A DNA stretch of 61,379 nucleotides, filler included, from Hausera hauseri (taxonomy: Eukaryota): assembly GCA_046269625.1 (NCBI GenBank). It is 11 parts of 11 records of this genome, joined end to end, with 100 filler letters (N's around TTAATTAATTAA, not from the genome) between each part and the next. Parts side by side here need not be neighbours in the genome. Positions count along the whole stretch, not along the records: positions 23,394 to 28,541 come from JBJURY010322162.1; positions 28,642 to 33,519 come from JBJURY010405923.1; 9 more parts are not named here. The stretch is one strand, 5' to 3'. Every line of letters begins with the position of its first letter. Position 1 is the stretch's first letter. This document shows positions 3,801-56,605 of this stretch, in pieces. The notes under the pieces were generated by a model, which saw only the letters and a list, made by a program, of their open reading frames with translations, made no database searches and was not told the origin of the DNA. Both the position numbers and the translations under genes were made by a program.

Positions 3801-4095
3801 GTTGTGGATGTTGTTCTTTGACTTGATGCTGAGGTGGTAGAAGTACTTTCTTCAGGGGTACTTGTTTGGGTTGAAATTGTCGTGGATGTCGTTGTTTGAG
3901 GTGATGTTGAGGTGGTAGAAGTACTTTCTTCAGAAGTACTTGTTTGGGTTGAAATTATGGAGTATGCCGTTGTTTGAGTTGATGTTGTGGTGGTAGAAGT
4001 ACTTTCTTCAGGAGTACTTGTTTGCTTTGAACTTGTTGTGGATGTTGTTGTTTGAGGTGATGTTGAGGTTGTAGAAATACTTTTTTCAGGAGTGC
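868..4095 (-). CDS. Mucin-like Ser/Thr-rich protein: large repeat exon running off the contig end, followed by small 3' exons
   Basis: ORF 818..2245 (T/S/P/E/Q-rich) stays open upstream of its first Met in the part checked, and the repeat continues to 4095. A 45-nt GT..AG intron lies at 935..979 and a further donor at 867, so the ORF tail is intronic read-through. Confidence 0.8.
1400..4095 (-). repeat. Coding tandem repeat, 78-bp unit (26 aa, consensus TSTPEESTSTTSTSPQTTTSTTISTQ), about 34 imperfect copies
   Basis: The anchor motif ACTTTCTTCAGG recurs every 78 nt, e.g. near 1430, 1508 and 1586. Confidence 0.9.
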
Positions 4096-4929: not shown

Positions 4930-6333
4930 TTATTTTCTTATCCCGTTCCCTGTTCTTACTGTTTCGACACCTGACCCAGACCTCGTAAAGTACAATTTAC
5001 AACCCCTATTAAATTCTCCAACATTTTTCATAATTATGCAATAATATAAAAATACATCTATTTTATACGTAGAAAAAACATCTAAGTTAATTTTCGCACC
5101 ATACCTAGCCATTTTTAACGGAGTGCTCCTCTCCGGGGGATTCTCTCCACCATTGATTTTGTGGCTCCAAACATACATACTGATTTTATCAGGCATACAT
5201 CCATACATACACACAACACAATCCCTGGCAGTATCCATCAAACCAAAAAGACAACAATAACCAATAATGTTACTATTTACACAACACTCAAATACCTTCA
5301 ACGTTCCTGGAATGATTAAATGTTTCTCCTTCTCTTGCATGTCACCAACGTAATCACGGATCGGAACACCGCTCACAAGAACATTGAATTTTGGATCAGT
5401 GTTTCCCAATAATTCTCGTAATTTATTTTCCACTTTCTTCAAGCAATTTTCGGCTTGTTTCTTTTCTTTCTCGACTTTCAACAGAATTTCACCGCGGTTC
5501 TTTAGTATGATAGGATCTTTCATTTGTCTACTGAGTTCAGCTAATTTCTCGACTGTTTGTTCATACTCCTTTACTTCAGCCATCAGTAGAGATAAATTCA
5601 TTTCCAGATACATGAGCTCGCGATTTTTTTCTTCTAACAAACCAAGGAACGTTTCAGCTTTCTCAGTGGAATTTAACCGGCTTTTATATGGATCTTTATC
5701 AACGGTATGAGACAGATAATTCGTCATCAATGCTTTACGCATTTTTCGTTGCTGCTCGTCAATAAGCACTCGCATTTTCTTTTGATAAACATCTTCCATT
5801 TTGTCTAATATTTCTTGAATCGCTTTAATAGTTTTAGACCCATATTCCGATTGCAAATCCGATATATCGTAAAGGGAACAATCGTCAAAAATCGACTTGC
5901 TAGTTAATGTTTCAAAACGTCGTCGTAATCGTTTCAATTCTCGCTTATTTTCATACATTTGTTCTTCCAGTAATTTGATATTACTGTCACAGTTTTGCAA
6001 AACTTTAACGGACAACTGAACAATTATACGATTTGAATCTTCAATAATAACATCAACAAATCCATTGTCGGAAACCTGGATTTCTAATTGAAAATAATTC
6101 TGTAATTATTTTTGTAAATAAGACGATTGGGACATTTTAAATCGTCTATGTTTCTGAAGCCTTTTTCTCTTGTTCTTCAATATCTGCCCAAGGGAGATTT
6201 GGTATGCGTAATCTCCAAAACTTTGTCTTTTGATAGAGACATAAATCTCTTGGTTGCGTTTATTATAACGCACAAAATAATTTTCTTTTTGATACTGGTG
6301 CATCCAAACTTTCTGAACGCACTTATAAGGCAT
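4930..6333 (-). pseudogene. Intronless coiled-coil ORF of unknown function (~467 codons) broken by one TAA
   Basis: ORFs 6106..6333 and 4930..6015 are in the same frame and the codons between them are open (LQNYFQLEIQVSDNGFVDVIIED...). No family recognised. Confidence 0.45.
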
Positions 6334-6772: not shown

Positions 6773-8082
6773 TCACACGACAGAATTTGCAATGGTTGTT
6801 GAAGTATCGGCACATTTATTTTGATTTCTCTCATGTTTCAACGAAATTTTCGTCGGCTTCCTGTTGGATTTCTTAATAGATCGCAACGGTGACCGCAAAT
6901 GTCTACGCATACATCGTCTTGACATGGAATGGGGTGGGTGTAATTTCGATGATTTCGTTGTCAAATAGTCGATAATCCGAATGGACGATATTCGTGATGG
7001 ACTTTTATTAATATGGTTCAAAACGTCAATGGCCTTGTCAACACCAGTCAGAAATGCCCCATGGGAACATTGCTGAGCACCTTTACTATCGACCGTCCCT
7101 TCCCCGCAAAATAACAATCTGGAATTTGACGATGTTGGTAAACTAGATGCATAGGCATTACGATCTTCATCAGATGTTGTTATAATTCCACTCGTGTAAC
7201 TTCCTAATGAAAATGGATCTTCCGACCATCTCGTTACGACAAAATTAATGGGTTTGGGAAACGGTTTTCCGTTTAACTCTTTGAAATACATGCCATTCAA
7301 ATATTCAATAAATCATTAATAACATCCTCGTCATTTCTCCCCGTAATTGACAGTCCAGACCCAGCCCAAACGTAGGCAACTAACACACCTTGTTTTCCAT
7401 AAAAGTCAAGATTTAAAATGTGTAAACGAGTATCGGGGCATTCCAAATGTGGATAATTGCGTTCCCAGAAAATATCGGCTTTGAGAAAATGCAAAATGAC
7501 CTTATTATGAGTTTCGACTCCAGGTTTCGATATTCCCAAATTATTAATAGCCTTCCGTTTATTTAACGGCAAAGGCGGAATAAAATTGACGGCACTTGTA
7601 GAGTCCAAATTCTTCAACACACCAACAGGAAGTGAAACTATACAATATTTGGCTTCCAAACGTCTGCCGCTGTGCAGAGTAACTTTAATGTTTCCTTTGT
7701 GACCCGTTGATTTTAATTTCACTTGGGACCAACCAATTTTCTTGACAATCGAACAATACGATACATTCAGATCTTCAACAAGGAATTGAATAAATTTCGA
7801 AAATCCATCAATGACCAAACGGTCTTCCCAATAATTGGTTGGGCGACTGACTACGCTGATCTGCGGTCCTTTGTTCTTCAAATATTCGATTTTGTTTTGA
7901 AAATATTTATGATATGAAAATTGCAAACACGTAAAATTCTCCATGGACTTTTTGTAATAGGCCCGTTGGGAATAATCATTAATCTCCAAATTGTACATCG
8001 ATGGAAAATTGTCAATGGGATTGATGTAATATAAATAACGACAAAGTAAGGAGTCGAATATTCCCCGTTCTCTACAAGACAA
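6773..8082 (-). CDS. Flavin amine oxidase (polyamine oxidase/LSD1-type), C-terminal half, one frameshift near 7298
   Basis: Motifs CIVSLPVGVLK, FIPPLPLNKRKAINNLG, NKVILHF...FW, VTRWSEDPFSLGSY, LLFCGEGT, HGAFLTG. Adding one T in ATTTGAAT restores ILNGMY. Confidence 0.8.
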
Positions 8083-8885
8083 AAAATGGGAAAGCCCGTT
8101 GGTTACTTTTAAACATCATTTCCAAAATATTCAGGAGGCATTTCCTGCAAACATTGTGAAAACATTGACGCAATCTAACGCCCATTTCTTTGTTAATAAT
8201 TACCAAACACATAAAACATTCAAAAATCGCGTCACTTGGAAAAATGTCCATTGAGCAAAATTGCGATATTTCTTCTCTTCGGCGATTCTTTTCTATTAAA
8301 TTAAAAACCGACTGAGCCCTCATCATTTCTACCTGAAAGGTGAAATTAAAAAACAAATGGAAATTGACGATTTTTCCCGTCCACAATCGAGATCCAATTG
8401 AAATTCGTCACAAGTCATGAATCGATGGCATGAATTACAGAAAATGCAGTTGTACAATGAACAATTCGGACAGGCGTACTGGATATTCGGACTGTCGTAT
8501 TCCATAATACAACTGCAATTTGGCATAAGACACTTAAACATTCCCGACAAATTTGCAATTAATAAACTCTCATATTTTTCAACGTCATCATTTCTGATAA
8601 CCTACATTTCTGTCAATCAACGAACATCAGATAATGATTACTTTTCTGATTTCATAGTCTTTGATATTTATATGACAATTATTCACTGGGCACGATATAC
8701 GATTGTCAAGATGGTGGTGTATAAAATTATCCAAACAAAGACTGAAATTGAATAAAGGATAAATAAGTTGAAAAGAAAGTATTGACTCACAGACAAACAG
8801 AATGTGAACAACTTAATTTGATTATTTCCATCGAATCCCCTTCACGTTGGCATAATAAACAAATACTTTGTAATTCATAATCCAT
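8072..8885 (-). CDS. RING1-IBR-RING protein resembling RBCK1/HOIL-1-type RBR E3 ligases, with 3 short introns
   Basis: Spliced translation MDYELQSICLLCQ...SCSHSVCL|LCLDNF...SCPVNNC...EIRK|VIRNDD...CLMPNC...CPNC...CIFCNSCH...C, then FECFMC...CFHNVCRKC. GT-AG introns at about 8743-8790, 8602-8641 and 8334-8369. Confidence 0.75.
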
Positions 8886-13497: not shown

Positions 13498-14098
13498 TTA
13501 GGTTATGTCAAAAGTAATGTCGTTTTTTTTACTAAAAATGAAACGTGAAAAATTAAATAACAAACAAGTATTTTATTGGACAATTTAATCTCCATCGCGT
13601 TGTATCACTTCATGCCACCTGGAAACCAAATTTTCTATACCTGATTTGTAAAAATCTTCAGATTTGGATTCGAAATACTCATCAAGTGCCTTTTTGAGAG
13701 CATCGATTGAAACAAATTTTTTCCCTAAAAGATAATGTTGTAGGGACCTGAAAAGACAATAATCTGTAGGTGCAAGATCAGGACTATAAGGTGGGTGAGG
13801 AAGAAGATCCCAGCCAAATTCCTTAATTTTTTCCAGCGTCTTTTTTGCTGTGTGTGGTCTTGCGTTGTCCTGATGCAATACAACCCCTTTTCTATTTGCA
13901 ATTACTGGCAAGTTTTCTTTGATTTTTTCATGTAAACGGGTCAGTTGCTCTCCATATAAATCGGTATTAATTGTAACACCAGGTTTGAGCAACTCATAAT
14001 AAACGATACCTTTGCGATACCACCAAACGCATAATAAAACTTTCTTACCATGAATATTGGGTTTTGCAGTAGATGTTGAGGGTTGTCCGGGGGAAAGC
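13498..14098 (-). mobile_element. mariner (DD34D) transposon, 3' part with TIR
   Basis: HGKKVLLCVWW, LHQDNARPH, LPHPPYSPDLAPTDY. TIR-like TA|TTAGGTTATGTCAAAAGTAATGTCG at 13498. Confidence 0.92.
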
Positions 14099-14198: not shown

Positions 14199-15170
14199 TG
14201 GAATAATAGTAATTATGTTAAACGAAAGAACAATAGCACGCAGAAGTATGAGCGATACTATAAAAATTGAAGTTTTTAACAAACATCAGCTACATAGGCT
14301 GAATTAGACGTAGAAACGAAATTACGTTTTAGATTAAAAAATAATGGTCAGAAGTCGAATAATAAAAAGAAATATGCTAAGGATGGAAGAACATTGCCCT
14401 GTGTAGATTCTGAAGGAAGATTAAGATGTTTTAACTGTAATAAATATTGCCACATCGCCAAAATGTGTCGATCATGCAAGCGGAAATTCCCTTAGTCCAA
14501 AGATAGTAACAAGTATAAGAAAGGCTACATGTCAGCCGCACCGGATGAATCGTTAGACAAGAAATACGAAACGGAGGATAAAGTTAGTAAACACGAAAAT
14601 AAAGAGAAGGATAAGAAGAAAGAAAGTGTTAATTATGTTAACGATATATTATCTCAATGGATGAAGATGCAATTAGATATGGAATTGAAAGATTACAAAA
14701 CTCGGCAGAAGAGGTTGCGAGATAACAGTATTTACATGGTAGAAGAAGAAACTAAAGGTAGAAAACCTCATCAAAGTTGAAAGAAAGGTAACAATAAATT
14801 GTGAGAAGTGAAGTATAACAAGAGAAGAAAAAAGGATGAGAAAAGAGCATCCTTCGCAAATCCACATTAGAAGAAAGCGATAATAAAGTACAACCTATAA
14901 AAACATTTGAGGGAACAGTAATTGAACAAGTAGTGTGGGATATAGAAGCTTATTTGGATGTTGAAGATGATATCATAGAAGCGGTAGTTGCAATCAACCC
15001 TGAAAATATAATTGACGTAAATAAAGCAACAACATCGATATTTAAACTAATAGATAATAAATTATCAACAGTTGAACTAAATGAAATCTTATTCCAATTA
15101 TTAATATTAGCTCACGACCATAGTCCCGTACGAGAAATAACACGAACAGACACAAAGAAGAAACTATAGA
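14199..15170 (+). mobile_element. Degenerate retroelement gag region with CCHC zinc knuckle
   Basis: CFNCNKYCHIAKMC (CX2CX4HX4C) at 14427-14468, followed by A-rich charged coding sequence with stops and frameshifts; intronless. Confidence 0.65.
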
Positions 15171-15177
15171 TAATATA

Positions 15178-15834
15178 ATGAGGAAATTAGAACCACCTGA
15201 AGAAGGAATGCATCCGTTAGGTGACACTCAGGACGTTACGGTCAAAACGGAAGCTAGAAGAAGAGGAAGGCCCATAGGAACGAAGATACGTTACATTTGC
15301 TATAAAATCGATAGAAACGACGAGATTGTACGCCGTTTACTGTTGACAGAAACGGATACAAAATCAAAATCTGTAAACACAGATCCTCTATTACCGACGT
15401 TACTAGCAAAATTACATACATTATTTACGTCTTTTGATATGCAGGTCACAATACCTGATGAACTGTTTCAAACCATACGCAATAGCATGCCACGAATCAT
15501 CAGGAAATTTTACGAAAACATTAGTGAAAAAAGGATTAATGAATTACATGACCAAGACATTCTAGAAACAGTGTTCGCCACCGGAATCACAAGAGAAAAA
15601 GTATTGACAGCCATAGCTTATCTACTATATAAATTAATGGCTATTAATTACCAAGCACAGAATCTGTAGGAAATTGAGCGTAACGTAAAGACAACGATTA
15701 AAATCCTACGAGGTACGCTGGAAAATTGGGTTCAATGTAGAGGTGGTTGGATGCAAAGTTTAATGAATAGTAGGATAAGAACCGAAATTCATGAAAGGTC
15801 ATCAGGTATGCTAACCATGACCCTATGTAGGTAA
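15178..15834 (+). pseudogene. Bcl-2 family (BOK-like) domain with one internal TAG, downstream of gag
   Basis: BH1-like VFATGITREKVLTAIAY at 15571. In the same frame past TAG 15667-15669 is BH2-like LRGTLENWVQCRGGW, ending at 15750. Spacing matches BOK IFSAGITWGKVVSLY...RKTLATWLRRRGGW. Confidence 0.72.
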
Positions 15835-19789: not shown

Positions 19790-20826
19790 ATGATAAAATA
19801 TTTTGCCATCAATAAAAGTCCTTCCAAACCCCATGCAATATCCAACTCAAGTCACGATAAAGGAAATACCAATCATTCTGAAAAGTCAAATCAGTCTCCT
19901 GAAAATGCCGAGTTCTATTCGAAAGAACGAGAAGAGATGTGGATAAAAATTTATACAAAGAAGCATTAGAATATCAAATGCAGTCGAACCATTCAAAATT
20001 AATTACGTGTTTGGAAGAAATTCTTTTTTCTCAATCATTGCAGAAAAATGATTTGGAATTCCATTTATCGGTCATTCAGGCAGAAGCGTACAAATTACTA
20101 GCCCACACGTACTGTAAAATGGATAAGTACGACGATTCGTTTGCGTTCTACAAAATAGCCATTAGATTGAATGAGAGATTTAAATTTATGGCGCGGATAT
20201 GCCGTCACGTGTGAACGATTGAAATATTCGAAGAAAGCCGTTGTTGGATACGAAGAGGTGTTGAAAATTAACGGTAGTTACTGGCCGGCATTGGATTTAT
20301 TGATAATTCTCACGTATTCGTTGGTACAGTTTGAGAAATGCCTGAAATTGTGCGAAATGGCTCTCGGTTTGGATTCACAATATGAGGCGGTCATTTATGT
20401 CGTTCAGTCGATTTTCTCATTTCAGCCATTTCTGAAGTTTTTTACGAATTTCGGTGAAATTGATCAAATTTTTTGGATTCGTCAATTTTCTCGAAGATAA
20501 ACAGTAAATTTGACGCTATCCGATCGAACATCCATGCTGAACGAATCGAAGAAGAATTGTGGAGTAAAGTTGATGTTATAAATTTTCTGAATTGGTTGAA
20601 AATAATCAATTGGGAATGTTTGACAAAGGCCATACTAGACATGTTTCAATATTTGAAACTATTAAATAAATTGGAGAGTATTATTAATTGTGGCCGTTTG
20701 TTGACAGATAACGATCTGAAATTGTTCATAGACCCTTTATCAAATTGTAACAGTAGGGATGATAAAGAACTTATCGAAGCCGTGAAAGAGAATGCAATGG
20801 AATGTGCTCCAGAGAATTATTCATAG
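19790..20826 (+). pseudogene. CABIN1: CABIN1 N-terminal TPR region, frameshifted and truncated
   Basis: MIKYFAIN; LYKEALEYQ; DLNLW...YEEVLKINGSYWPALDLLIILTYSL...ALGLDSQY...IFSFQPFL, compared with CABIN1 DVNLW...HWPCLDNLITVLY...IFEEQPCL. Confidence 0.75.
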
Positions 20827-21511: not shown

Positions 21512-23293
21512 AGGGGAAACGCGGCCACCCTGCATTTTGGGGCCCGCCGTGCCGAGGCGGAGGTCCCGACCGTCAACCCTGCTCCGGTTGGTCGGACGAC
21601 GCCTTTCGCATCGTCCCTACACCACGCCACTAGACGCACTACTTATTCCCCCTCTATTTTCCTTTTCCTCAATAATACCCATATTTACACAATCACAGCA
21701 CCACATTTACATATTGCAACTCATCGTACCTTCATTTCTTTTTCACTTAACTCTTCAGAATTTTATCTCACTCATAACGGCGCTATAATACCTCTCACCG
21801 GAACCCTACCATTTTTCTCGAGCAACACTTGTTTCCACATACATCCCCGTATCCGTGGTGGCATGTACCCTTCGCCAACCATTGACACCACGGATAAAAC
21901 CGCCACAAAACCAAAATCTGTCATATTACTTCAAAAACCCACTCCTAATCCTGTTAGAAACTTCCAACTCATTACCTATTCAGCTCCTTTCCCTAACTGC
22001 ACCGAATTTTTCATTGCCAACCAAGGCTCCAGCGAAACTTGGTTGCAATTCCATTAACTATAGCTATAGGTAAATAACATCACCGACTCTTTAACTAAAG
22101 CACATAATCTTCTCTTCCTACTGCCTAATAGTATCAAAGCACGCATTCACAATATTATCGAAATCTTCGAACTTCCAGACCCATATTCCCAACTTTCTAA
22201 CGCAGTTTTTAAGATTACAGAACCTTCCATAGACACGATCATACGTTTCTTCCACGACATCGTTATAGGCACCCAACAGCCATCAGAATTCTTACGTACT
22301 TCTTTAGCACATCTCCATACCCTCGGCGTCACTAAGGAACACAACCAAAATCTACTGCACCACTATTTCCTTAATGCGCTACCTATCCAAATCCGGGTCC
22401 TACTTACCGTGGTGGAGGACTCGACACCGTTTGAGAAATTGGCCGAATTAGTCGATAGAACACGATGTCCTACATGTAAATTCTCCACCAGTTGTTTCAG
22501 CAGCAGTTGCCGCTAACGATAATACATCCATAGAACAATAGCTTAATCAGCTCCGTGCTGAAAATATTGCACTGCCTGCAACAATCAACAATATCAATAA
22601 TGAACTAAGCAAACTTACCCTATCCCGCCGGAGGGATTTTGCCGCTGACCGCGTCCGTTCTGAGTCTAGAAACCGCTCACCATCACCGGCGCGTTTGTCG
22701 ATCTGCTGTTACCACAGCAGATTTAACACTAATGCTCCGAACTGCTGCCTAGGGTGCAAATTTTATAACAAGAATTTTTCCTCGGACACCTTTGTTTGCA
22801 TCTACCATGCAAGGTAAAAAAAACCAAGCTCGTAAATGTATTCAAGGCTGCACTTCAAATCCAATACGAACGACGGACGTACTGTCTTTCCTTCTAATAG
22901 TCGTCCTAATTCACCCTTTCTAAAAACTAAGTTCGCAGCCAGAAGTCACGGCAAACTATGGCAAAGGCACTACTTCACTTTCTGAACGCCGACATGTCTT
23001 TTTTGCTGTCTTTACTGTAAAGGCTGCAATCACTGCTCCTACAACGCAATCTATTGACTTCCTCATCGATACAGGTGCAGCGATTTCTTTATTACCACAA
23101 ACCTTTCCTATACAAAATTCTCCATTTAAAATTAAGCCCTTATACACTGCTTCAGGCCAACCGCTGCACATTTCTGGCATGGCTAAATTATCTTTCACGT
23201 TACCAAATTTTCCTTTACCCTTCCACTGGACGTACACAGTCGCTAACATCCAGACGGCAATTATAAAATCCCACTTTCTCTCACATTACAATT
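21511..23293 (+). mobile_element. Gypsy (CsRN1-like) retrotransposon copy A: GC-rich leader, UBL-RIRGG, gag, protease (degenerate)
   Basis: Gag motifs QQPSEFLR, YFLNALP, KLAELVD and CCYH...C...C; protease FLIDTGAAISLLP. Homologous to 44341-45457 and 52797-56605. Confidence 0.88.
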
Positions 23294-23393: not shown

Positions 23394-24529
23394 ATTCATA
23401 GGTTAGCAACACTTCGCCCGTAACTCGACCGAAAATTCCTTCTCTCATTGGAATTATTGGAGAAGCCAGTTCTGGGTTTGCATATATAAGAGTCATTTTA
23501 GTTCTCATAATTTCTGTATCCAATTTACAGTCATTCATTATCATTTTATCATATAGTTCCTTTATTCCTACTTGTCCTTTATAGTAGAAGTAATCGTCTC
23601 TATTTTTCAGATAGTCTTCAATCCGAACATCCTGCATTTCTAATTTGTAGGTTTTTGCGTTTATTTCCGTTTCGGCTACAAAGAACGCTTCGTAGTTTGT
23701 GGCGAACATTACTACATCGCAGCGAGTCATCATTTATTTTTTTATAAATTTTAGTCTATGCGATTCCGGGATGTTCCGATACATCTTCGCGTTTTCTTGA
23801 ATTAGTCTCCGATTTGTCTACATAACGTTTTCCGGTAGTTTCATTAAACTTTAACACTTTAATTTTGATAAAGTTACAGCTTCTTGCCGAGGGAGGTTCC
23901 CATATTATAACCGAACTACTAAAAGCACAAGTTCCGTCTTGTAAATGGCATTTTTGATTCTCAGTGTATAACTTAGTGATACTATGGAACATCACCTCCT
24001 GTGATCGCATTTCTAATTCGTAGAAATCCACAACCACCACGTTTGATTCCAATCCTTTTCCGGTGTCATATTTGGTTCCACTACAGTGTCCGCTATGCAT
24101 ATCTAGTTTTCCGGCTACCACTTTATATGCCGTAATTATTTTCCCTGGCTGCATCTTCAATTGCATATTATCCCATTGTATTCTTCCAGTTTCTTTGGCT
24201 TGCTTACAGTGTTGGCGTTCTAAATTCATCGGAATTAGTGGAGTTGTTGGCTTAATTATAGAGGAGTGTCCATGTACTAAACCGCAGTAAAAAATGCTTC
24301 GTGATTGTCTCAGCATGCATTCCATCCCATCCTACGATATCAGTTCTCGTTGTTGGTATAGGAAGTAGTGTTTCTCCTTTGTCTCCAACTTGTGTAGTCT
24401 GGCATTTTCGCACACTTCCAAATCCATTAGGGAGTACCTCTGTCTTAGTTTAAATTTTTTGCAATCGTAGACAGTTACGGCGCCTATGTGTTTAATTATT
24501 ATCATCAAGGTGAGTAAGTTAATCAGCAA
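23394..24529 (-). pseudogene. Viral-type envelope glycoprotein (chuvirus-like, class III fusion type) with internal signal peptide
   Basis: LLINLLTLMIIIKHIGA|VTVYDC...YSLMDLEVC...FYCGLVHGHSS...VAGKLD..GHCSGTKY...CHLQDGTC...IIW...NPELA...GRVTGEVLLTYE, the Cys/motif pattern of chuvirus-like G proteins. Confidence 0.72.
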
Positions 24530-27500
24530 ATTTGATTCGTTCTTTCGGCCTCCAACATCTGCAGTTGTCAAGTTACTTAATATATTATCGAGTTTACTAC
24601 TGCTTCGTTTGTCTTCTTCCGTATCACATAGCCCTGACCAATTTACTTCGCAGGGCAATCTTCTCGCAGCTTTTCGTGCTAAGCTTATAGCTTTATTGAT
24701 TTCATTCTGCCGATTAGGATTTATTTTGATGGCTAAGTATAGTAATACTTTTCTCAATTCTTCTTTAGTGTTTTCTACAATGATCTTTTCTATTATCGAC
24801 TCGTCGGTTAAGTTACTGTTTGATAATTTGAAACGCGAACTTCTCATCATTTTGGCTGCATCAAAAATTATTTTTTCTTTATCCTCTAACACATCACCTC
24901 GAAGGCTTGAATAATTTACAATTCCTATTAAATTCTTCATTATCTCGTTTAATTCTTCATTATCTGTACTAAAGGTCGGAATTGACATTTGCTTAATTCT
25001 CTAATCAATTCTCTGTTATAATCTTCTTCTTCTCGCGTTTTCGTGGGCTTACCTACTAGACGTTTCGGTTTTTGGCCTCTGGAAGTCATTTCACTCAGTG
25101 GTATTAAATTTATATCATATTGTTCCTTATCTTAGTCCGTTTGTAAGTACTCAAAATTCATTGCAGTATCTTGAAATCCCATAACTTGTCCTACGCATTT
25201 TTCTGACTTGGCCTTACGCGTAGCTTCCTCTCTGGTTTGTTCGTTAGTTACTACTACCACTACCCGGTTCGTTTCGCCAATAATGATCCCGACATCTATT
25301 AACTGCTATAGGTCATCGAGTATTCTGCCCCTAAAGTAGAATCTATAGTTTAGCTCATTTGTTCCACCATTATTTAACAACCATTCTTGCGCGTCTCTTA
25401 CATATGAATATGTAGTTAACTCACATTCTTTTTCATCCATCCATTCGGATGATACCATTACTTTCATAGCTAACTAAGGTTTATTCCTTAAAATTTTAGC
25501 ATATTTCCTTACCAAAGGTTTCGTCACCGTGCTATAAATCGTGTTCTCACTGGATAATTTAGTTAAAGTTGGAATAAGTTGTCTTAATTTATTTTCAATA
25601 ATATTTACGTTAATTAATTCAATCAAATCCTTTTCAGTTAGCGCTGAATCCAGTAGCATCTCCACATCGAATCTTCTGTTCTGTGGGCACGTTTCTATCT
25701 CATTCAATTGTATTGGAGTCATGGGCTTTTCGGTCAGTATTGCATCGAAGTATGCATCCCATTCCGGCTCGTTTCCGACATCTAGAAGTCCAACGTCTAT
25801 CGCAATTGTTTTTGCTCTCTGTACATTTTTCCGAATTTCTTTCAACCTGGGTTGTATTTCCTTCATCTGCGTAGTTCGGAAACCTACTCCATTCCCACAA
25901 GCACATTGAGTCATTTTCAGTAATTCTCCGAATTCGTTAGAGTCGATGAGTTTCTTTTTGGGGATAATCTGTTAATTCAATGATTACATATTTTTGCCAT
26001 CTCTGTACAAATTCTCGTTTATTCTTGATTTCTGACTCGGTAAAAGCATATTTGTTTCGATAGATTTCGAGCTCTTTTGTTATTTCATTTAACATTGTCG
26101 CTCTTTGTTTCGTTTTGATACATGTTTCTTCTACTTTCTGTATCTTTGGCATCAATTGCCTCATTTGCTCATCACTGATTTTTGCCAACTGATTTTGCTA
26201 ACTCATACATCCCATTTATAACCTTTAAGTCAGGGTCCATTGCATCCGACAATTTCTTTACGAACTTGTGTTCCAGAAAACTAAAATGCAGATCGTCTCT
26301 GATTTTTGTCAACTTGGTATGGAAATTCTGATCTAATTCGGCCATCCATTCTCGTGGTTTGTGTAAGAATTTTATTGCGTCCGTTAACGTATCTCGATGT
26401 CCTGGACAAATGTCCAAGATTTCAATGTCTTGGGCAGAGATTTCGTCGATCGGTTTTCCCGTTAAATATTGGACTCCTTCTAGTCGAACAACCCTTAACC
26501 TTGAGTTCACATCGTAAATCATATTTTGCTTTTCCGTAAAGTTCGTCTCCTCAATCAGTTTGTAGATCTCCTCCAATATCAACGCTTCTAGTTCCTTTTC
26601 CATAAATTTTAGTCGTCGTAACGCTTCAAATTGAGTACGGATGTCTATTCCTATTCGCATTGTGCCTAAATCATATGCACTTTCTTCTAATTGCTTCTTT
26701 ACTATTGGCTCGCTTTGCGGAAATTCCTTTTTCCGGTCTTATACTAATCTACTTAATCGCGTTACTAATTCGGACCATTCCTACAATTGATTTGCGATAA
26801 TTGTCTTGGCTAGTATAGCCTTATCTAGCATCTTATATGTATCCTTTAACTCATCGTCTGGTCCTCTTAGGAAGTTCATAATCCGGCCGACATAACTAAA
26901 CTCGTCCTTGTACTCGTCCAACTCTGTGATACAAGCTTTTGTTATATATTGAGTCTCCTCGCTATTTGGGGACATGATTCGGTTCCTCAAGCTATAAATC
27001 TGTGCTCGCTTTTCATTTTCTATCTTAATTCAATTTTCTAGGCTTGTATATTGTTTAGGCGTAGCAAATGCGATTTTTATCATCTCCGTCAAGGGAGAAA
27101 TATCCAACGAGTTTATACCCAATATTTCTAAATCGATCTTACTGCGATGGTTAACCGGTTTTTCCCTAATCCGGTTAATCACTAAGTGACGAATTTCATC
27201 CATCATACGTTCTAAGTTTCGGACCACTCTCTACAATTTCGGCTTTGCCTCTAGAGCAGACAATAGCGTCTGAGCCTTGGTGACTTTTACGTCGACTCTA
27301 TCTTCATTTTTATTCCACCCTTTCGAAAATTCTACTCCGCTTTTAATCCAGGATTCTAATTCCTGCTTCCGTTTTAACAACGTTTCGGTCGATATTTCTT
27401 CTGGCTGTTCTAGGTCGATTGCTTCTGCGAGCTTACCTTCACTGTATAGTTTTCGGCTCTTATATAATCTCTCCGCATACTGTTGTTCTTTTCCGGATAT

Positions 27501-28541
27501 ATCTACTTGTTCACTGATTTGCTTGAGCCGTTCTAAATTCCGTTGCAATACTTCCGGATTATGACATCTAATTCTCATTTTCTTTAACTCATCGGCGTTT
27601 TTCCACGAACGCCGGACTTTCCACTTTTTTGGATCGAAATCCTTAGTATTCTCTGTTTCTTCGTCACTAATGGGAAGCGGACAAATCTCGTTGATTTCAT
27701 TAATTGACTCTATAGACTCCGGTACTCCGACAGGTGTGGGTGAACCAATCTCCGGTTTATTCAAACTATGATCCAGGTTACTTTCTACAACGATGTTCGG
27801 ATTTTCTTTTTCTTCAACTTTCTCTCTAGTTATTTTGGAGCGTGAACGACTTCTACCTCTCGTTTCTAAAGAAGGGCTACGGCCTTTATATTTCGTAATT
27901 TTAAGTATTAATGGTACCATAAATTCTTTTTCTGCTGCGTCGTCATCCGTGGACTTCTCTACTCTTTCAACTGTGAACTCAGGCTCTACATATAAGTCGA
28001 CTTCTGTCGATGTGCCTGGTTTCTCAATTGGTTTATTACTTATCGGAACACTCTTTTTCTATGTCATATCGCTTCGTTTTTGTGCAATCGGGTTCTACTG
28101 AACCGTGGTATACTTTTAGTAGTCTTAGTTTATCTTTGTACTCTTTTTTAGCCGCCAGAATTTGTGGATTATTGGATTCGGGCTGAGCGTCTAGGTATTT
28201 CCGCAAGTCTTGTATATCAATTATAGTGCCCGTACCTCCAAGAAGGCCATACTTTGCTTCTAAGTTTTCGTCCATTCTGATCATACTGGTCTTATTTGGC
28301 TCAGTGAATGAAACACTACGTGGGTTTGGATATGATCTTAAAATGTGTCCTTCTTTTCCTCAAGTAAAACAAACTAAGTTTTCATTTCTACTGACTCTTT
28401 GTCGACCGTCTTCGTTCACCGGTGACTTAGATTTATTTATATTTTTATTAAATTGGTTTGAAAAGCTTTGAACATTATCTATATTTCTTAGATTATCATT
28501 ATTTCGGTTATCGCCGTTCTGGTTTGAGTAATTCGAGCCTT
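23394..28541 (-). mobile_element. Degenerate env-bearing retroelement, copy 1: gag knuckle remnant, long insert, chuvirus-type glycoprotein
   Basis: Broken knuckle LVCFT*GKEGH near 28340-28380, followed by collinear ORF pieces homologous to 28642-31600 and ending in the glycoprotein. Confidence 0.75.
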
Positions 28542-28641
28542 NNNNNNNNNNNNNNNNNNNNNNNNNNNNNNNNNNNNNNNNNNNNTTAATTAATTAANNN
28601 NNNNNNNNNNNNNNNNNNNNNNNNNNNNNNNNNNNNNNNNN

Positions 28642-31600
28642 AATTAAAGAGAATAAGAATTAATTGCCTCGATCCGGAAGTATTACAACTTAAGAAAATG
28701 AGTGAACAAGTAGACATTTTTGGTAAAGAACAGCAGTTTGTGAAAAGATTATACAAAAGATTGAAATTATGTAGTGAAGGGAAACTCACTGATGCAATAG
28801 ACTTAGAAAAACCTGAAGAAGTATCATTAGAAACGTTAGAAAAAAGGAAACACGAGGTAGAAATATGGATAAAAAATGGAATCAAATTTCCAGAAGCCTG
28901 GGACAAATACACGGAGGATATCGGAGCAAGAGTAGAAAAAAACGCAGACATCACGGACTACATTAAAAGCCAATCCTAGATTAAAAAGAGTAACACGCAA
29001 CTTAGAGTGCGTCATGAATGGAATTAGATTTGAAATGATTGAACGACTCAAAGAAAAACCGGTTAATGAACGAAAAGAAATTGATTTAGAAATATTGAGC
29101 ATAGACCAAGTAGATATTTTTCCCTTAATAGAAATGATAAAAATCGTTTCCTCTGTGCCTAAACAATATGGGAACTTAGAAAATCGTATTAAGATTGGAA
29201 GCGAGAAACGGTCGCAAATTTACAGTTTTAGAAACAGAATTATGCACATGAATAAGGAGGAAACACAGAATATAATCAAGGACTGTACCATTGAATTTGA
29301 TGAGTATGAGGATGAATTCAATTGTGTCAATCAGATTATGAGTTTTATCAGAGGTCCTGATGACAAATTAGAAGACGCATACAAAACGCTAGACAAACCA
29401 ATACTAGTAAAACATGTAATAGTTAATCAGCTAAATGAATGGTCCAGATTAATATCCAGACTAAGTAAATTAGTGCATAGCAGTATAAAGGAATTTCCAG
29501 AAAGCGAGCCTACAGTAAAGAAACAACTAGAAGAAAGTGCATGGAACTTGGATACAATAAGAGTGGAAATAGATATCTGGACTCAACTTGATGCATTGTG
29601 CCAATTGAAGTTCATGAAACGAAAGCAAGGAACGACGATATTGGAAGAGATATACAAAACTATTGAAAAAACGAGCTTCACAGAAAAGCGGAATATGACT
29701 TGCAATTTCTATCCAAGATTAAGAAACGTCAGCCTAGAAGGAATTCAACATTTGACAGCTAAACCTATTGGAGTGGTCTCGATTCAGGATCTCGAAACTT
29801 TATATGTTTGTCCAAAACATAGAACAGCTATAGGGAAAGCAATGAAATTTATACCAAATCACAAGAGTGGATGACCGGAACAGATCAAAATTTCCACACC
29901 AAATGATCAAATAAGAAACGACCATCATCTCAATTTTGGGAAGCTAAATTTGTAAAGACATTGCTCGATGTGATAAATCCAGACTCAAAAATCCTTAATG
30001 ATATGTCAGAGTTAGCACTGCTAATAGTAGAAATGTCAGAAATTAGTAAAGAGAAGAAAAGACAGTTGATGCCTCAAATACGTCAAGCCGAAGAAATGTG
30101 CATTAGATCCAAATAAAGAGCGTAGGGTTGGACGAACTAACCAGAGCTCGAAATCTATAGAATGTGGGATACTATTACAGAGTCAGAAATGGCTGACAAG
30201 TCACGATTTGTGCAAAGTTGGCAAAGAGACGTAGCGTCTGAATTAACTAATTATCAAGAAAAAGGATTGATACAGGCCGATAAATTATGCCAGTTGCTAA
30301 CATTATTGCATCAGACCTCCGGAAATGGACGTTGTTTCCGAACAGCACAAATGGTTAAAATGAAACAAAAATTATGCGAACTAAGAGAATTGATATGTGA
30401 TACAAACGCAGTCCGACCAGCGGACATGCCAGTGATTGATTATAGACCGCCAGATAATGAAAATGATCCAGAATTGGATGTGTACTTAGATGCAATGGTT
30501 GCCGAGAATCCGAAAATTCCTGTACATTTGTACGAAACTGAGACGTGCCCACAGGATCGGTGATTCAGTATGGAGATGCTTTTAGATTCAGCGCAGACTG
30601 AAAAAGTCTTAATTAAATTAATTAATGTAAACATTAACGAAGTTAAGTTATGACAGTTAGTTCTTACCATGCCTAAATTATCTAGTGAAAGTACCATTTA
30701 TAGTGCCGTGCCGAAACATTTAATAAAGGAATATGCTAAAATCTTAAGGGCTAAGTCTGAAGAAACGATTAAAGTAAGGGTATCGTCAGACTGGATGGAC
30801 GAAAAGAGTGCGAGTTCACTACGCACTCCTATGTAAGTCACGTAATACAGTGGCTAATAAGCAATGGTTGCGGATATGAATGGAATTATAGACTCTTTCA
30901 GAGGTAGAATATTAGACGAACTGTACCAATTAATAGACGCTGGGATCCTCCCAGACGAAAAAAATCGTATAATGGCAATGGTCGCCACTGAGGAAACGAA
31001 AGAAACCACGCGAAAGGCTAAAGCTAATTAGTGTATAGAGCGAATTATGGAAGTTCGAGACGCAGCAATGTATTTCGAATACTTGCAAACAGGTGAAGAT
31101 AAAGAACTGTATTATAAGAATTTAATACCCCTTAGCGAAGCCATATCGGTTATGGCAAAACAGAAGCATCCTGTCGATAGACCACGGAAAATGCGAGCAG
31201 GAATTGATTATAATGGAGATCTGGTTAGAGAATTAAGACAAATGTCTATACTTACCTTCAGAGCTGAGAATAAGGTGTTAAATGAACTCATGAAAAATTT
31301 GATACGCATAGTAAATCATTCTAGTCCCCGTGGCAATATAATAGATGAGAAAGTAAAAGCTATATATAATGCAGCCAGAATAATGAGAAATTTCAGTTTT
31401 AGAGATGTACTTATTAATATTGAAGAAAAGAGATGCATACAATAACTTCCGGTATTATATCAAAAAGCACTCTAACAGATCAGATAATGATCGAGAAACT
31501 TATGGTAGAAAATACCATGGAAGAGTTACGAAAAGCCCTCCTCTATCAATAGTAATAGTAGACTCGAAGATATGGTACGAAATTTAACCGGAAATAATCG

Positions 31601-33519
31601 AGGAAACGAATTAAACTGGCCTTAATATATACCAATCCTGAGCTAGCATAGCAGATAATTCCAATAAAGGAAGGAGTTTTTGACCAAGTAACCGGAGAAG
31701 TTTTATTGACTTATGAATGCGAGAAAAGCGATGTCCTTATTAATATTGAAAAAAGAGATGCATACAACAACTTTCGATATTATATCAAGATATGCCGAGA
31801 TTAGTGACGCCGATTACTAGTTTTACTGGCCAACTCAACTCAACCAACAATTCTGAAGGATTGTAAAACGAGTTTAGGTGAACCAATGCTTTGACGTGGC
31901 GAAACGGATTGGATAAGTTTACCAAATTGAGGTATAATCACTCTACTCATTAAGCGAACCGGAACAAATTTAGTAAAAGGAACAACCGATGTTAAATTTC
32001 AAGACACCGCAGCCAAAGGTGTTTGCATGCCAAAAGAAGTTGAAGCATTTAGACAATTTCTTGCTTTTCCACATCATCGTACACATAAACTAAACCGGGC
32101 TATGCATACGATATTAGAAGTTACACTTTATCAAGTGAAATGAAAATCAATACTTGGCGTTAACATTATCAAAGAGTAACCACAGATATCTTATATAAAA
32201 TTTGCGGAAGACTTTTAATTTTTGGACAATCCGCATAATGATTTTTAGCAGTCTAGTTCTTAATCCAACTATTTAAATCAGTAATTCAAGCGATTATAAA
32301 CTGTTATGAGATATTCACCCTAACAGGATTCTCGTGAAAATTATTAACAGCTATTATCACACCATTTGGCAAATTCCTAAAAGCTGTCGAAGAAAGCCGA
32401 TGGAAGGCAGATGTTAAACGACATGTTGGCTATCATAATCGGAAACGTAAAAGAAGACACATATGCAATTACAAACGCAAATTCGTAAATATCAAACCGA
32501 GAAGAGAAAACTCTGATGATGACGACTAGCCTAAGGGAGGAGACGCCGTCTCCAAGACAAATAGACACAAAACCTATTCCGTTACAAAAGCACCGTTACC
32601 AATATTACCGCCAACTGCATCTATATATAAATATTGTGAGAAGCAATCTATGAGTTAATATCAAACGGATATCTATACAAAACCGTAGAAAATATCTATA
32701 GAAAGCCATATAAAGAAACAAAACATTACGATGTGTTACGTAAAATGCACAAAACTAAATGAACCTCTGCCTCATATCGTCGTTCAGCAGTTGACGACCA
32801 TGAAACATTTTATTCCCTTAGAATACCCAGGATGAAAGAGGCACGCCCAACACTTTCAAGAGACCACGAAATGCATGTGTTTAGAAACCAAGAAATGCAG
32901 TAACCAGTTAGAAGCCAACAAACGGAAATTGTCCATTGCGCGAGCAATGAACTGTATCCAAATGGAAAGCTAATGTAATTAATCGACCAGACAGTGGCAA
33001 TCACAGAAGTCAGAATTAATGAGTATAAGGTATCAACGATTCAACATCGAAAAATAGCACCGAATTGCTATCGCACGATAATCGAAGGTAGACCCTTCAC
33101 TAAAATTCAGTTAGAAGATTGGGAAGTCTACGCATTGGTAGACACAAGATCCGAAATATCGTTTATAAAGCTTGACTCAATACCTCAGTTTCTATGGAAA
33201 CAACTATATGTACCTCCAAGAACAGATCCAGGAAGTATTGGAGCTTTTGGACAATCATCAAAAAGTAAATATAGATGGAATCCAGAAATTCACATAATGG
33301 GGCAATCGTTTCGCAATGAATTCTTGGTAATGGAACAGTTAACGTATGACGTAGTATTAGAATGTGATCTGTTGAAACAACTACCAAATGTAGCCATAGA
33401 CTTCCATGCGGGAAAATTAATAGAACTCCGTCCGATAAAATGAATTAAAACTATTAAAGGTAGGAAATTTGGAGAAGAATGGATCCCAATGGGCGAAAAC
33501 ATCACACATAGAAGTGAAA
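28642..33519 (+). mobile_element. Env-bearing retroelement, copy 2 (more decayed; env N-half deleted), followed by aspartic protease
   Basis: Collinear with copy 1 (GKEQQFVKRLYK, FIRGPDDKL, ETCPQDR). Env remnant NPELA...VTGEVLLTYEC near 31630-31720, hydrophobic TM-like region near 32210-32370, protease VYALVDTRSEISFI near 33126-33165. Confidence 0.78.
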
Positions 33520-35403: not shown

Positions 35404-36740
35404 CAGCTATGGCCAAAAGTCTGGTAACTGTCAACAAAATGCATCTAATATCAAACATGGAGATAATAGCAATAATACAAACGGCAAATTAATTTTTTTA
35501 CTGTGTGGGTGTAAAAATACTTTGTGTTCTATATTTACCAACCTTAACCAATCAAAATTCTGCCAATTCTGCCTGCGATTTCTTACATTATGCTTGTCAG
35601 TCTGATAATTTGCTATGGAGCTGTCTACTAATTTAAGAAGTCAAGTCGTTTTGCTACATCAATCTGGTATGGTGCAAGTGTGTATAGCTGAAATGCTTGG
35701 TCTCACTAAGCGTGTGATATCATCTACACTGAAGAGGCACCGTGAAACGGGTGATGTTGCAACGAAGCCGAGAAGTGGCTGACCACGTGTCATTACACCA
35801 ACGACAGATTTCATTATTCGACGCCGGAGCATTATCAACCCAACCACACTATCAAGAAAAATTGCTGCTGAATTCCAAGTCAGTTCTCGTACCATTAGAC
35901 ATCGTCTACGTGACGAATTTGGACTGAAAAGTTATCAACCGGCAAAGAAACCGAAGCTCAGCGCCATAAATGTTCACGATCGTCTTGAATTCTGCATGGC
36001 TCACAGACACTGGACACCACAAATGTGGGAAACTGTATTGTTCAGTGATGAGACGCAAATGTTACAGTTTGTTAACGCGGGCCACACATGGGTTAGACGT
36101 CCCGTTGGTGCGCGGTATGATGCTAAATACGTTGTTCCCACTGTAAAGCACTCTATGTGTTATGATCTGGGGTCGTATTGCTGCTTCAGCTGGAGGTTAT
36201 CTGTGTTTTCTACCAAAGAACACGACAATGAAAGACACAAACTATTTAGAAATTCTTCAGGAGTATTTGCGGCCCATGATGACTTGTCGTAATGCTACTA
36301 TCTTCATGCACGATGGAGCTACGTGGCACCAAGCCAAGATGGCCAAAAAGTGGCTTGCGGATTCTGGGGTTGAGGTATTGGCTCCGTGGCCTGGAAATAG
36401 CCCGGACCTCAACCATATTGCGAATCTGTGGCACATTTAGAAAGTTAAAGTTGCTGCCCATCATCCAAGTAGCTTACAACACCTAATCGACGTAATAAGA
36501 CAAGTATGGTGCAAGGAAGTGTCCGTGGAAGTATGCCTAAAGCTGGTGCATAGCATGCCGAACAGAATCAACGAAGTAATAAAAAAGGGTCAGCGCACTA
36601 AATACTGACAATTAACTATACTTTGTGTAATTCTCATCATTTTTCATTTGTATAATTATCTTGGTATGTTTGATATTAAATGCAATTTCTCATAAAAATG
36701 TCTATTTTTTCAAAAGTTACCAAAATTTTGCCCACAGCTG
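35404..36740 (+). mobile_element. Full-length degenerate Tc1-like transposon (1337 bp) with 26-bp imperfect TIRs and TA flanks
   Basis: Left CAGCTATGGCCAAAAGTCTGGTAACT; right (reverse complement) CAGCTGTGGGCAAAATTTTGGTAACT. Motifs VLFSDET, FMHDGA, WPGNSPDLNHIANLW. Confidence 0.93.
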
Positions 36741-44340: not shown

Positions 44341-45457
44341 GACCCGCCCGAGGGTCCCGGTCACCCCGGATCTTCAGGTACGTCACATTGCGGCTGACTA
44401 CCCTGCCCAATGTCCGATGTCAGTGGGCATTACGCAACGGCCTTTTACATCACAACATGACCCACTAGGGCCCACACCAAAACTCTCCTTTCTTTTCTTA
44501 AATAACTACCAACTATTCAAACACAGAAGAACATGTTTCATAGACGCATCCTACTTGCACAATTATGTATTACACTTCGCTAATACCTCTGATTTTTATC
44601 TCACTTACAACAACCTACCTGTAATTAATTTCAATTTTTGAAACCTTTCTGTTCCTTCAACCCAATATACCGTTATTCAAGTACACATCCGTGTGCGTGG
44701 TGACATAGATTCTTCATCAACTATTGACACTAATAACAAAACTACCTCTTAACTATCACCTTTTACTTTTCATCAGAAATCAACGATCATCACCACACCA
44801 TCTACTATCACCACTTGTACACCTTCCATTCCGCCAGCCAAAGACGCTTCTCAGTGCACAGAATATTTTATCGATCACGAAAAATCCAGCAAAACCTGGC
44901 TTAGCTTTCACAAACTTTGGCTGCAGTCTAACAACGTTACTGATCCCTCAGCAAAAGCTCGTAGTTCACTTTGCCTCTTACCAAACACAGTAATGACTTC
45001 TCTTCACGATATTTTTGACATCTTTCAACAATCCGACCCGTTCACACATCGCTATAACGCAGTCTTGAAACTTACCAAACCGTCTATGGATTCCATAATC
45101 CATAGATTCTTTAATGATAACGCCATGGGATCACAAAAGCCTTCTGATTTCCTGCGTACGTCGTTGACTCACGTACAAACGCTACGTGTAACTATGCAGC
45201 ATAATTCAAACCTTTTGCGACAATATTTCTTAAACGCGTTGCCTATGCAAATAAGGGCACTGCTTACCATTGTCGAGGAATCTACGGCGTTGGATAAATT
45301 GGCGGAATTGGCTGATACAGCAGATGAAGTGCTACAATCGAATTCTTAACCCATTGTATCAGCAGCAATCACAACAAGCAACAATCAACTCAATACAACA
45401 ATAGAGCAACAGTTGAGCCAATTACGCGCTGAAAATTTAGCACTACAACAGACAATA
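44341..45457 (+). mobile_element. Gypsy (CsRN1-like) copy B: leader, UBL (RVRGD|I), gag
   Basis: FLFLNN...SDFYLTYN...QVHIRVRGDIDSSSTIDT; MGSQKPSDFLR...YFLNALPMQIR...DKLAELAD. Confidence 0.85.
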
Positions 45458-50659: not shown

Positions 50660-51690
50660 TTTTTCACAATAATAATTGGTGACAGAAGCACTGCATATTC
50701 CGGACATTTTAAAACACTTACATTGGAACGGAAAACAAAACGATTAAAGGAAAGACTTGTTCGCCATGGTCATTAGAGAAAACTAAAGCCTTATTTGAAC
50801 TGAAAGATTTTCCAGAAAATCATGTTCCAAATACAAGTTACTGTCATAATCCTCATATTATGATGCCTTCACAATTTTGCTTCACAAGATTACATTCTGC
50901 AGAAGCCTGTAACATTCCAATTTGCTCCTCCATAAAACAACTTTGTGTGGGAAATCAATTTTCCACCCACATGGGGAATAATGCCAGTCTTGCACAAGAT
51001 GGATCACTGAATGATAAGTTTATTGAAAACATTTCATGTTCATCAACTCAGACGGGAATATCACAATTTTCGCTTATACAGTATTCGTTGGACGTCTATG
51101 TTACTCATGCAAAATTTCGAATACTTTCACTAAATAATACTGCGAAATTAACGTTTCTCTACAAGGCATATTCCAGTTCGTCATTTAATGAATGCGAAAA
51201 TGTAAAATTATTTGATGGCACCATCATTTTCTTTTGCACATACATCATGGATATAATTAAAGTACAAACATTGGACAATGAATCATCAACACTGGTTATC
51301 AGTTACTTTGAGAGTTATGCAAATTTTAACAAGTCTGACCGTGTTGCAGCCGATAATACTTTCCAAGGATATATAGATCAAATAACCATGAGTAAATATG
51401 GTAATCAATGCGTACCATGGATAAACTTCAAAACGTTTTTATCGGTCGGAACCTCTTTGAATAAATTATATCCGGATAATTATTGCATGTCACTTTTAGA
51501 TCCAATAAGTACATTGTGTATTGTTGAATATTCGAGGTGTTTTTGCCAAGGAATACTGCGTTATGGAGAGGTGTTCAGATAATTCGTTCTCATGCGCATT
51601 AACCGAAATTGTGGTCGATTATGACGGTCGCATCAATGTTGCAGTAACAGGTGAATTTTGTCATAACTGGTATGATCTAATAGATTAGTA
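50660..51690 (+). pseudogene. Multi-kringle-domain protein (degenerate or partly spliced)
   Basis: SYCHNP...FCFT...EACNIPIC; FQG...SKYGNQCVPW...DNYC; DYDGRINVAVTGEFCHNW. Confidence 0.6.
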
Positions 51691-55700: not shown

Positions 55701-56605
55701 CAGCTCAAAAACATACAACTACCACGTACATCCACAGAGATGCGTTCTTTCCTCGGAACCTTGCACTTCATTCATAAGTATGTTCTACACTGCTCCACTC
55801 TAACCGCTCCATTTGCATCACTAATCTATGTCAAGAAGAAACAGCCCATTCAGTGGACCACCAAGTTAGTCAACGCTTTCAATTATCTCAAAGACAATTT
55901 AAAAGCCGTCGAAATCCTGGCCTATCCAAATTCCCATGCAGTACTCTTCCTAACCACGGACGCATCCACAACAGTTGCAGGTGCTGTCCTCCATCAAGTT
56001 AAAAATGGATCCCATGAGCCATTGGAATTCTTTTCTCGAAAATTGACAACACAGGAGTAAAGATATTCCATCTTTGACAGAGAGTTGCTTACAATGGTCC
56101 TTGCCGTAAAACACTTTAAACATCTGCTTCCCGCACGAACTTTTACGATACAAACGGACCATAAGCCCTTGCTTCAAATTCTTACCATAAAATCACCTTC
56201 TCCACGTCAGGAGAGGCAAATTTCCTATTTGTCAACATTTAACTTTCTAATTAAGCACCTAAACGGAGTCGATAATTTAGTAGGTGACTTTTTGTCCCGA
56301 TCGGTCAGCTCGATTGATTTTACACCAATTTTTCCTCAATCCAAACTTTAACAAAACCAGCCACTTCCTGCCATCCTTAAATCTTTTAAATCGTGCAAAA
56401 CCATCGACGGTGTGGCCTTTGACACTTTTAAATCTAATAATTCCAAAGTCATTATTTCTGAATCGCTTCAAAACGAAGCATTCAACAGCATTTGTTCGTT
56501 GCATCATCCCGGTGCCAAGGTCACATTTGACTCTTACAACGCCAAGTAGTATGGCCGTCGATGCGCTCTGACGTGCAGGCATGGGTTAGGCAGTGTGTGG
56601 CATGC
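52797..56605 (+). mobile_element. Gypsy (CsRN1-like) copy C: leader, UBL-RTRGG, gag with tandem CHCC motifs, -1 frameshift, PR-RT-RNaseH-IN (stops present)
   Basis: CYYHSKF...KC and CIYYSKFG..AQKCLPGC; FLIDTGAEISLLP; SPWSSPLHVV, DYRQLN, IPKTAVITPVGLFE, YIYDIL (YxDD mutated); LTTDAS; TDHKPL; integrase HPG...CVAC. Confidence 0.92.
54217..54223 (+). promoter_or_regulatory. -1 ribosomal frameshift slippery site A-AAA-AAC at the gag/pol junction
   Basis: CTA AAA AAC TGA ends gag, and the -1 frame is open from there to the protease DTGA. A similar CTAAAAACTAA occurs near 22920 in copy A. Confidence 0.7.

Follow-up and report, generated by a model that had tools for sequence, protein, structure and literature searches.

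Retroelements with an envelope (env) gene between gag and pol are known from several animal groups, and here we describe two decayed elements of this kind, A and B, in a stretch of 61,379 nucleotides (nt) of the Hausera hauseri assembly GCA_046269625.1. This stretch (the window) consists of 11 contigs joined by N-linkers, and positions count along its whole length. Planarians harbor the giant Ty3/gypsy elements Burro/GYPSM1 (PMC6431247 section 7, which cites Jurka 2007 and Grohme 2018). Burro encodes a gag with CCHC knuckles, Ubi2/SUMO-like and BCL2-like modules, and an env that is related to mononegavirus fusion proteins and was called the first case of an env in frame between gag and pol (PMC6431247). 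Burro1 transcripts are under PIWI control (PMC8532177).

GAG-ENV-POL errantiviruses with an envelope of the herpes simplex virus (HSV)/glycoprotein B (gB) type occur in Nematoda, Bryozoa and Platyhelminthes (PMC13524379; Sacco 2022 cited there). Their env lies between a signal and a transmembrane helix, the elements are intact, and GAG, ENV and POL are treated as open reading frames (ORFs). The main text of that paper contains no occurrence of Burro or Bcl and leaves accessory modules undiscussed, although its ORF-map figures may show them. Anakin, from mosquitoes, is a BEL/Pao element with a chuvirus glycoprotein (PMC7642597). In a literature search for retrotransposons with Bcl-2-like and env domains, which mostly did not cover subscription papers, only PMC6431247 was relevant.

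Given the analyses presented below, we consider A and B to be, very probably, decayed elements from two subfamilies of one Burro-like, high-copy Ty3/gypsy retrotransposon, the active form of which encoded a single Gag-accessory-signal-Env-Pol polyprotein. They share with Burro a putative CCHC-knuckle Gag, a long accessory region, the positions of a ubiquitin-like and then a Bcl-2-like module, an in-frame mononegavirus-related env and a protease. Unlike Burro, they have no Pfam match to MATH, BIR, ankyrin or Smc in their covered, decayed part, they contain about 800 codons without homologues, and the domain of A at the Bcl-2 position lacks a clear fold match. The env lies in frame within one polyprotein, as in Burro, with the gag and protease junctions resting on relatives. 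On this likeness, which is to the published description and not to the Burro sequence directly, we take A and B to work as Burro does. With the GAG-ENV-POL errantiviruses they share the gag-env-pol order and a gB-type env between a signal and a transmembrane helix, whereas those elements are intact and the distance from knuckle to env in A is long. Anakin shares the broad glycoprotein family PF24664 but has a BEL/Pao backbone, whereas the relatives of A and B have a Ty3/gypsy pol with env upstream of the protease. The first-pass annotation of this DNA had implied that the arrangement was novel; the order is already published for planarian Burro, where it is in frame, and for errantiviruses of three phyla, and that of A and B is not new.

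Organization of elements A and B

Element A is the contig at 23394-28541 (minus strand) and element B the separate contig at 28642-33519 (plus strand). Both contigs lie wholly within coding region. A third element, C, is on another contig. The features are as follows.

Element A
28330-28541, minus strand: gag tail rich in Asn and Arg, with a decayed CCHC zinc knuckle at its end, the rest of gag being off the contig (six-frame translation)
25621-28329, minus strand: lineage-specific accessory region, charged and predicted to be helical, with stops and frameshifts; homologous to B (dN/dS)
25255-25620, minus strand: helical segment and putative ubiquitin-like domain common to env-bearing relatives (hidden Markov model (HMM), hhalign)
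24548-25000, minus strand: all-helical domain at the position of the relatives' Bcl-2-like domain (shuffles, hhalign, AlphaFold2 (AF2))
24476-24532, minus strand: internal hydrophobic stretch, a signal or signal-anchor, sharing its frame with accessory region and env (hydropathy)
23394-24475, minus strand: N-terminal half of a Monjiviricetes/gB-type fusion glycoprotein, running off the contig end (PF24664, env HMM, 99 homologues)

Element B
28642-31546, plus strand: accessory region homologous to A, including a putative ubiquitin-like remnant (30678-30986) and a 63-nt env duplicate (31401-31463) (alignment to A, HMM)
31607-32547, plus strand: decayed env C-terminal half with transmembrane region (env HMM 343-504 and 524-629; PF24664 530-602)
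33087-33419, plus strand: retropepsin with a non-canonical catalytic motif (PF00077 RVP)

Element C
14199-15810, plus strand: third, more distant family member with a gag knuckle (14427) and a putative Bcl-2-like domain (about 15379-15771) (tblastn, Pfam, HMM)

Contig A thus runs from the gag-knuckle remnant through about 1,280 codons of accessory region and the internal signal to the N-terminal half of env, and contig B from the accessory region through the C-terminal half of env to the retropepsin. The two align over 24838-27587 of A (minus) and 31392-28644 of B (plus), at 67% nt identity in 2793 columns, and again in env over 23394-23504 and 31718-31608 (70%, 111 nt). With knuckle, insert and env on A, insert, env and protease on B, and overlap in insert and env, env lies after gag and upstream of pol, and the order gag-insert-env-protease proposed in the first-pass annotation is borne out by the two contigs together. 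That annotation had also called A and B two copies of one retroelement. They are related, but as diverged subfamilies rather than copies, given their nucleotide identity and the proportion of synonymous differences (pS, 0.72).

The sole visible trace of gag is the knuckle at 28330-28371 in A, which retains two of its four ligands. A six-frame search of the window finds the pattern C-x2-(C/stop)-x3-GH a single time, at this knuckle, which was matched neither by Pfam nor by gag and knuckle HMMs built from relatives. The hydrophobic signal of A sits in ORF 24332-25000, which is stop-free from the insert through the signal into env. This ORF and the next (23756-24331) are one frame interrupted by a single TAG (24332-24334), and env is further damaged by a frame change near 23810. 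That the glycoprotein signal is in frame with the insert, with one TAG between ORFs, had been noticed before; the TAG can now be placed about 47 codons inside the env ectodomain. In B, about 1.2 kb has been deleted, taking the signal and the N-terminal half of env, and the 63-nt duplicate corresponds to 31727-31788 (90%).

Contigs matching A at ≥85% identity numbered 11,889 in run X1 (551 of them at ≥99%), which may be the source sample, and 725 in run X2, which is from a different organism and study. They cover all 30 bins of A, and no single piece spans the stretch. This indicates that the A family is high-copy; the contig counts give no copy number and say nothing on expression.

Relatives with a single polyprotein

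A HMMER search with A 23801-25000 yielded 99 proteins at E≤0.001, of which we scanned 15 long or N-extended ones for domains. PF24664 was present in all 15, and 9 had a protease after env in the same protein. Reverse transcriptase (RT), RNase H and integrase followed env in 4/15, and a Pfam gag marker preceded it in 4/15. In P0019, the gag marker, env, protease, RT, RNase H and integrase are all in one ORF, and the best Protein Data Bank (PDB) match of P0007 is Ty3 Gag-Pol (E 4.9e-119). Intact relatives encode gag, accessory region, env, protease, RT, RNase H and integrase as one Ty3/gypsy-type polyprotein. All 14 relatives examined have a hydrophobic stretch before the start of env (hydropathy 2.15-3.68; 2.81 for the signal of A), and most long relatives have a second such stretch after the ectodomain.

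Some features of these relatives stand apart. Of ten relatives looked up, one is labelled as from a bacterial metagenome-assembled genome (MAG): P0007 (HBK71150.1), attributed to a Flavobacteriaceae MAG. It is a complete gypsy polyprotein with env and probably stems from a mis-binned animal contig. P0003, P0007, P0022 and P0101 have additional hydrophobic segments C-terminal of integrase. Those of P0003 and P0007 include a signal-like segment and an anchor-like one on either side of about 250 residues that match nothing in Pfam and may represent a second membrane protein. Multiple tandem protease-like segments occur between env and RT, and sometimes after integrase, in P0003, P0006, P0008, P0015, P0081 and P0101. 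A search for viral contigs for P0002 returned none (0/1 candidate).

A probable single ancestral reading frame and its decay

We compared A and B over 13 ungapped blocks from tblastx (935 aligned codons). These contain six stops in A and five in B, none of them common to both, whereas the shifted frames of the blocks contain 218 and 158 stops in 1844 codons. Frame changes are also private to one element, at three places in A and four in B. The ratio of nonsynonymous to synonymous substitution (dN/dS) is 0.12 (bootstrap 0.07-0.17; 278/300 replicates computable), with pS near saturation. Because no stops or frameshifts are common to both and dN/dS is low, the accessory region and env were most likely once a single reading frame, and A and B diverged as working elements that decayed separately. 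Both are dead relics, with stops and frameshifts in each and the deletion in B. Neither has intact ORFs (11 stops in 935 codon pairs), and the earlier suggestion of a potentially infectious element does not hold for these sequences.

The proposal of a single polyprotein with an internal signal fared better: A and B share no break across insert and env, the relatives are single ORFs, and the hydrophobic stretch before env is found in A as in the relatives. An alternative keeps the same order but has env or pol as an ORF of its own, accessed through frameshift, readthrough or splicing. The lack of a common break, the single ORFs of the relatives and the in-frame env of Burro (PMC6431247) make this improbable. 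In favor of separate ORFs, the window has no open frame across the gag-insert or the env-protease junction, PMC13524379 describes its elements in this way, and equal amounts of Gag and Pol would be unusual.

Probable membership of the protease in the env-bearing family

The RVP match in B (PF00077; 32979-33443, E 1e-4) is above the cut-off, and the contig stops about 100 nt after the protease, ahead of any RT. Among 24 protease-like segments, the closest to the B protease is the last pre-RT protease of P0003 (E 2.4e-9), followed by that of P0101 (9.3e-8), compared with E 1.3 for a neighboring gypsy protease in the window. An HMM of the family protease gives 2e-11 for B and 1.9e-5 and 3.8e-3 for the two other proteases in the window.

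The protease could instead come from a separate gypsy element, either nested or situated after a gag-pol-env element of the ordinary type or after a lone envelope. The spacer of 250 codons between env and protease is closed, B is rearranged elsewhere and the window is rich in other gypsy elements, all of which would fit an insertion. However, the B protease resembles those of env-bearing polyproteins and not the other gypsy proteases of the window, which argues against it; the spacer length is within that of the relatives (88-332 aa, 9/9), the spacer has no match to anything else in the window, and in A the stretch from knuckle to env contains no pol. A nested insertion thus appears unlikely from the similarities among proteases, and the full scenario strikes us as highly improbable. 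The protease most plausibly belongs to the same element as env, as had been proposed.

Envelope type and affiliation

Element A matches PF24664 (Monjiviricetes_fusion) over profile positions 20-244 (E 3.7e-19) and 263-378 (E 3.2e-7), with stops read as X, and B matches it with E 1.5e-10. In an env HMM of 36 homologues and 666 positions, A covers positions 4-378. When an env profile of 37 sequences including A was compared with PDB at E≤10, 36 of the 37 matches were herpesvirus gB (best E 0.011). These profile matches support, at the sequence level, the class III/gB type that the first-pass annotation had assigned to the env.

An env tree, a quick one of 79 of 100 rows after those shorter than 190 aa were dropped, places A in a group of 39 rows in which 17 of 19 polyprotein or N-extended rows are found, and the named chuvirus glycoprotein (G) P0062 (Wenzhou crab virus 2 G) in a different group. 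By eye, the cysteine spacing and motifs of the A env are nearer to six Schmidtea rows than to Bryozoa or mosquito BEL rows in supplement 2 of PMC13524379. The explanation is almost certainly neither a BEL/Pao element of the Anakin type, a lead raised earlier, nor a chuvirus glycoprotein gene that was endogenized directly: PF24664 takes in chuvirus-type G, P0062 is among the matches and Anakin elements bear such a G (PMC7642597), but the top matches are gypsy-type polyproteins, BEL/Pao-specific Pfam domains are absent from all 15 scanned relatives whereas gypsy-type pol is present in 4/15, and A groups apart from the named chuvirus G with moderate support.

A word-index protein search with the env piece found nothing, which is weak evidence. 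Four of 62 metagenome candidates matched this piece, all over 40 residues at E 6e-4, and were rejected as chance.

Accessory region

The insert had been treated as a single long stretch, and its modular make-up, resembling the Burro accessory region, was overlooked. The knuckle-to-env distance in A is about twice that in five relatives (232-623 aa), and P0020 has >1,300 residues before env. An HMM from five relatives, with segments chosen by eye, has its best match in the window at A 25255-25620 (E 2.3e-4), its second at B 30678-30986 (E 0.17) and its next at E 0.54; hhalign of the A segment against the relatives gives 64.5% (E 6.3e-5). The relatives' accessory profiles match the ubiquitin-like domain (UBL) of ubiquilin in PDB at E 0.012 and 0.0077. 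These matches are consistent with a ubiquitin-like module in A and B and lend it weak support.

An accessory profile of stretches from seven relatives and element C (one row misaligned) gave 92 PDB matches at E≤1, the best 60 of which are four ubiquilin UBL (E 0.012) and 56 Bcl-2 family chains (E 0.015, Bcl-xL). Element C is similar to P0002 (tblastn 44%, E 3e-43) and to the relatives' HMM (E 6e-29), and it matches Pfam Bcl-2 at E 5.7e-5, as does P0004 at E 9.6e-4, both below the cut-off. A Bcl-2-like module in element C is supported by these similarities. No env HMM match lies downstream in C.

For A, the domain at 24548-25000 scored against the Bcl-2-like profile at a level reached by 7/498 shuffles (hhalign 52.8%; 0.5% against a wider profile). 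Its AF2 model has a predicted local distance difference test (pLDDT) score of 54.5. The best VIA score in a fold search (Z 6.8) is to an unrelated protein, and the viral Bcl-2 homologue ORFV125 is at rank 6 (Z 5.7, root-mean-square deviation 4.4, 82 aligned), on a par with unrelated helical proteins. In ESM Atlas, this domain had no usable match.

For the upstream accessory codons of A and B, about 800 in number, no homologue was found by word-index protein search, in ESM Atlas, with the relatives' HMMs or in metagenomes (0/80 candidates), and comparison of the long insert with Pfam, PHROGs and PDB sequences gave weak, chance-level rows only. The AF2 model of B's counterpart of A 25621-28329 has a pLDDT of 39.8.

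Evidence against the proposed element

Several observations weigh against a Burro-like polyprotein. RT, integrase, long terminal repeat, primer-binding site and target-site duplication are absent from contigs A and B, and the complete gene order is pieced together from two contigs with one third of their bases different. Gag in A is represented by a single half-destroyed motif; the junction from knuckle to insert shifts frame, and B does not extend over it. The spacer in B has 8-15 stops in every frame, so B by itself offers no sign of continuity between env and protease. Blocks for the codon comparison came from tblastx, which favors open frames. Frame changes with too little space for an intron are seen in host-type genes of the window as well, so some of the frameshifts in A and B may be assembly errors. 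The env tree was made quickly and its support for the group of A is unstarred (SH-aLRT 87), and the PDB profile E-values are only about 0.01, from segments of relatives picked by eye. Finally, the domain of A at the Bcl-2 position is not matched by the relatives' HMM and has no clear BH2 motif, and its model lacks a clear fold match (none in Foldseek at E≤0.001).

Proposed polyprotein and its processing

The domain order, the in-frame junction of accessory region, signal and env, past purifying selection and decay are seen directly in A and B. We propose that the active polyprotein would comprise Gag, an unknown helical region, a ubiquitin-like and probably a Bcl-2-like module, the signal, Env with its transmembrane anchor, and the protease, followed by RT, RNase H and integrase; for pol and the single ORF, the relatives serve as the model. 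From general membrane biology, the internal signal would take Env into the endoplasmic reticulum, where host signal peptidase would free its N-terminus. The transmembrane helix would bring the chain back to the cytosol, and the element's protease would cut out Pol and Gag. The signal stub could tether the Gag-accessory part to the membrane at Env, which would permit enveloped particles, and the targets of the accessory modules would be apoptosis or ubiquitin pathways of the host. The A and B sequences are now incapable of any such processing or particle steps.

Other content of the window

The minus strand at 818-4095 is open for about 1,090 codons, a mucin-like frame built from Ser/Thr-rich repeats of 78 nt. 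Ordinary gypsy elements of another family, with DUF7041-type gag and protease, lie on the plus strand at 21789-23293, 44753-45349 and 53270-56300, the last also with RT. Transposase-like ORFs were noted by eye at 13585-14098 and 35783-36440. Genes for MAP65/ASE1 (4930-6105), a kringle protein (50713-51582) and a CSE1 fragment (56706-57122) are consistent with an animal host; a word-index protein search with the CSE1 piece found nothing, which is weak evidence. An amine oxidase gene (6773-8115, minus strand) and a tetratricopeptide repeat (TPR) gene (19903-20826, plus strand) contain frame changes without intron room, and represent either assembly indel errors or pseudogenes.

Implications

We tentatively raise the possibility, which we regard as doubtful at present, that the Burro design, with one polyprotein processed by signal peptidase, is no peculiarity of planarians but that of a broad enveloped gypsy lineage with anti-apoptotic accessories, represented here by at least three subfamilies, in a host group from which it has not been described and with a novel type of helical accessory protein of 800 residues. 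The elements described here link the accessory-rich polyprotein of Burro with the GAG-ENV-POL errantiviruses, which are kept apart in the accessible text of PMC6431247 and PMC13524379. Intact natural relatives such as P0007 and P0019 make the processing model testable. The occurrence of ubiquitin-like and Bcl-2-like modules before env, in database polyproteins and, as predicted, in the three elements of the window, suggests that retroelements may manipulate host cell death as true viruses do.

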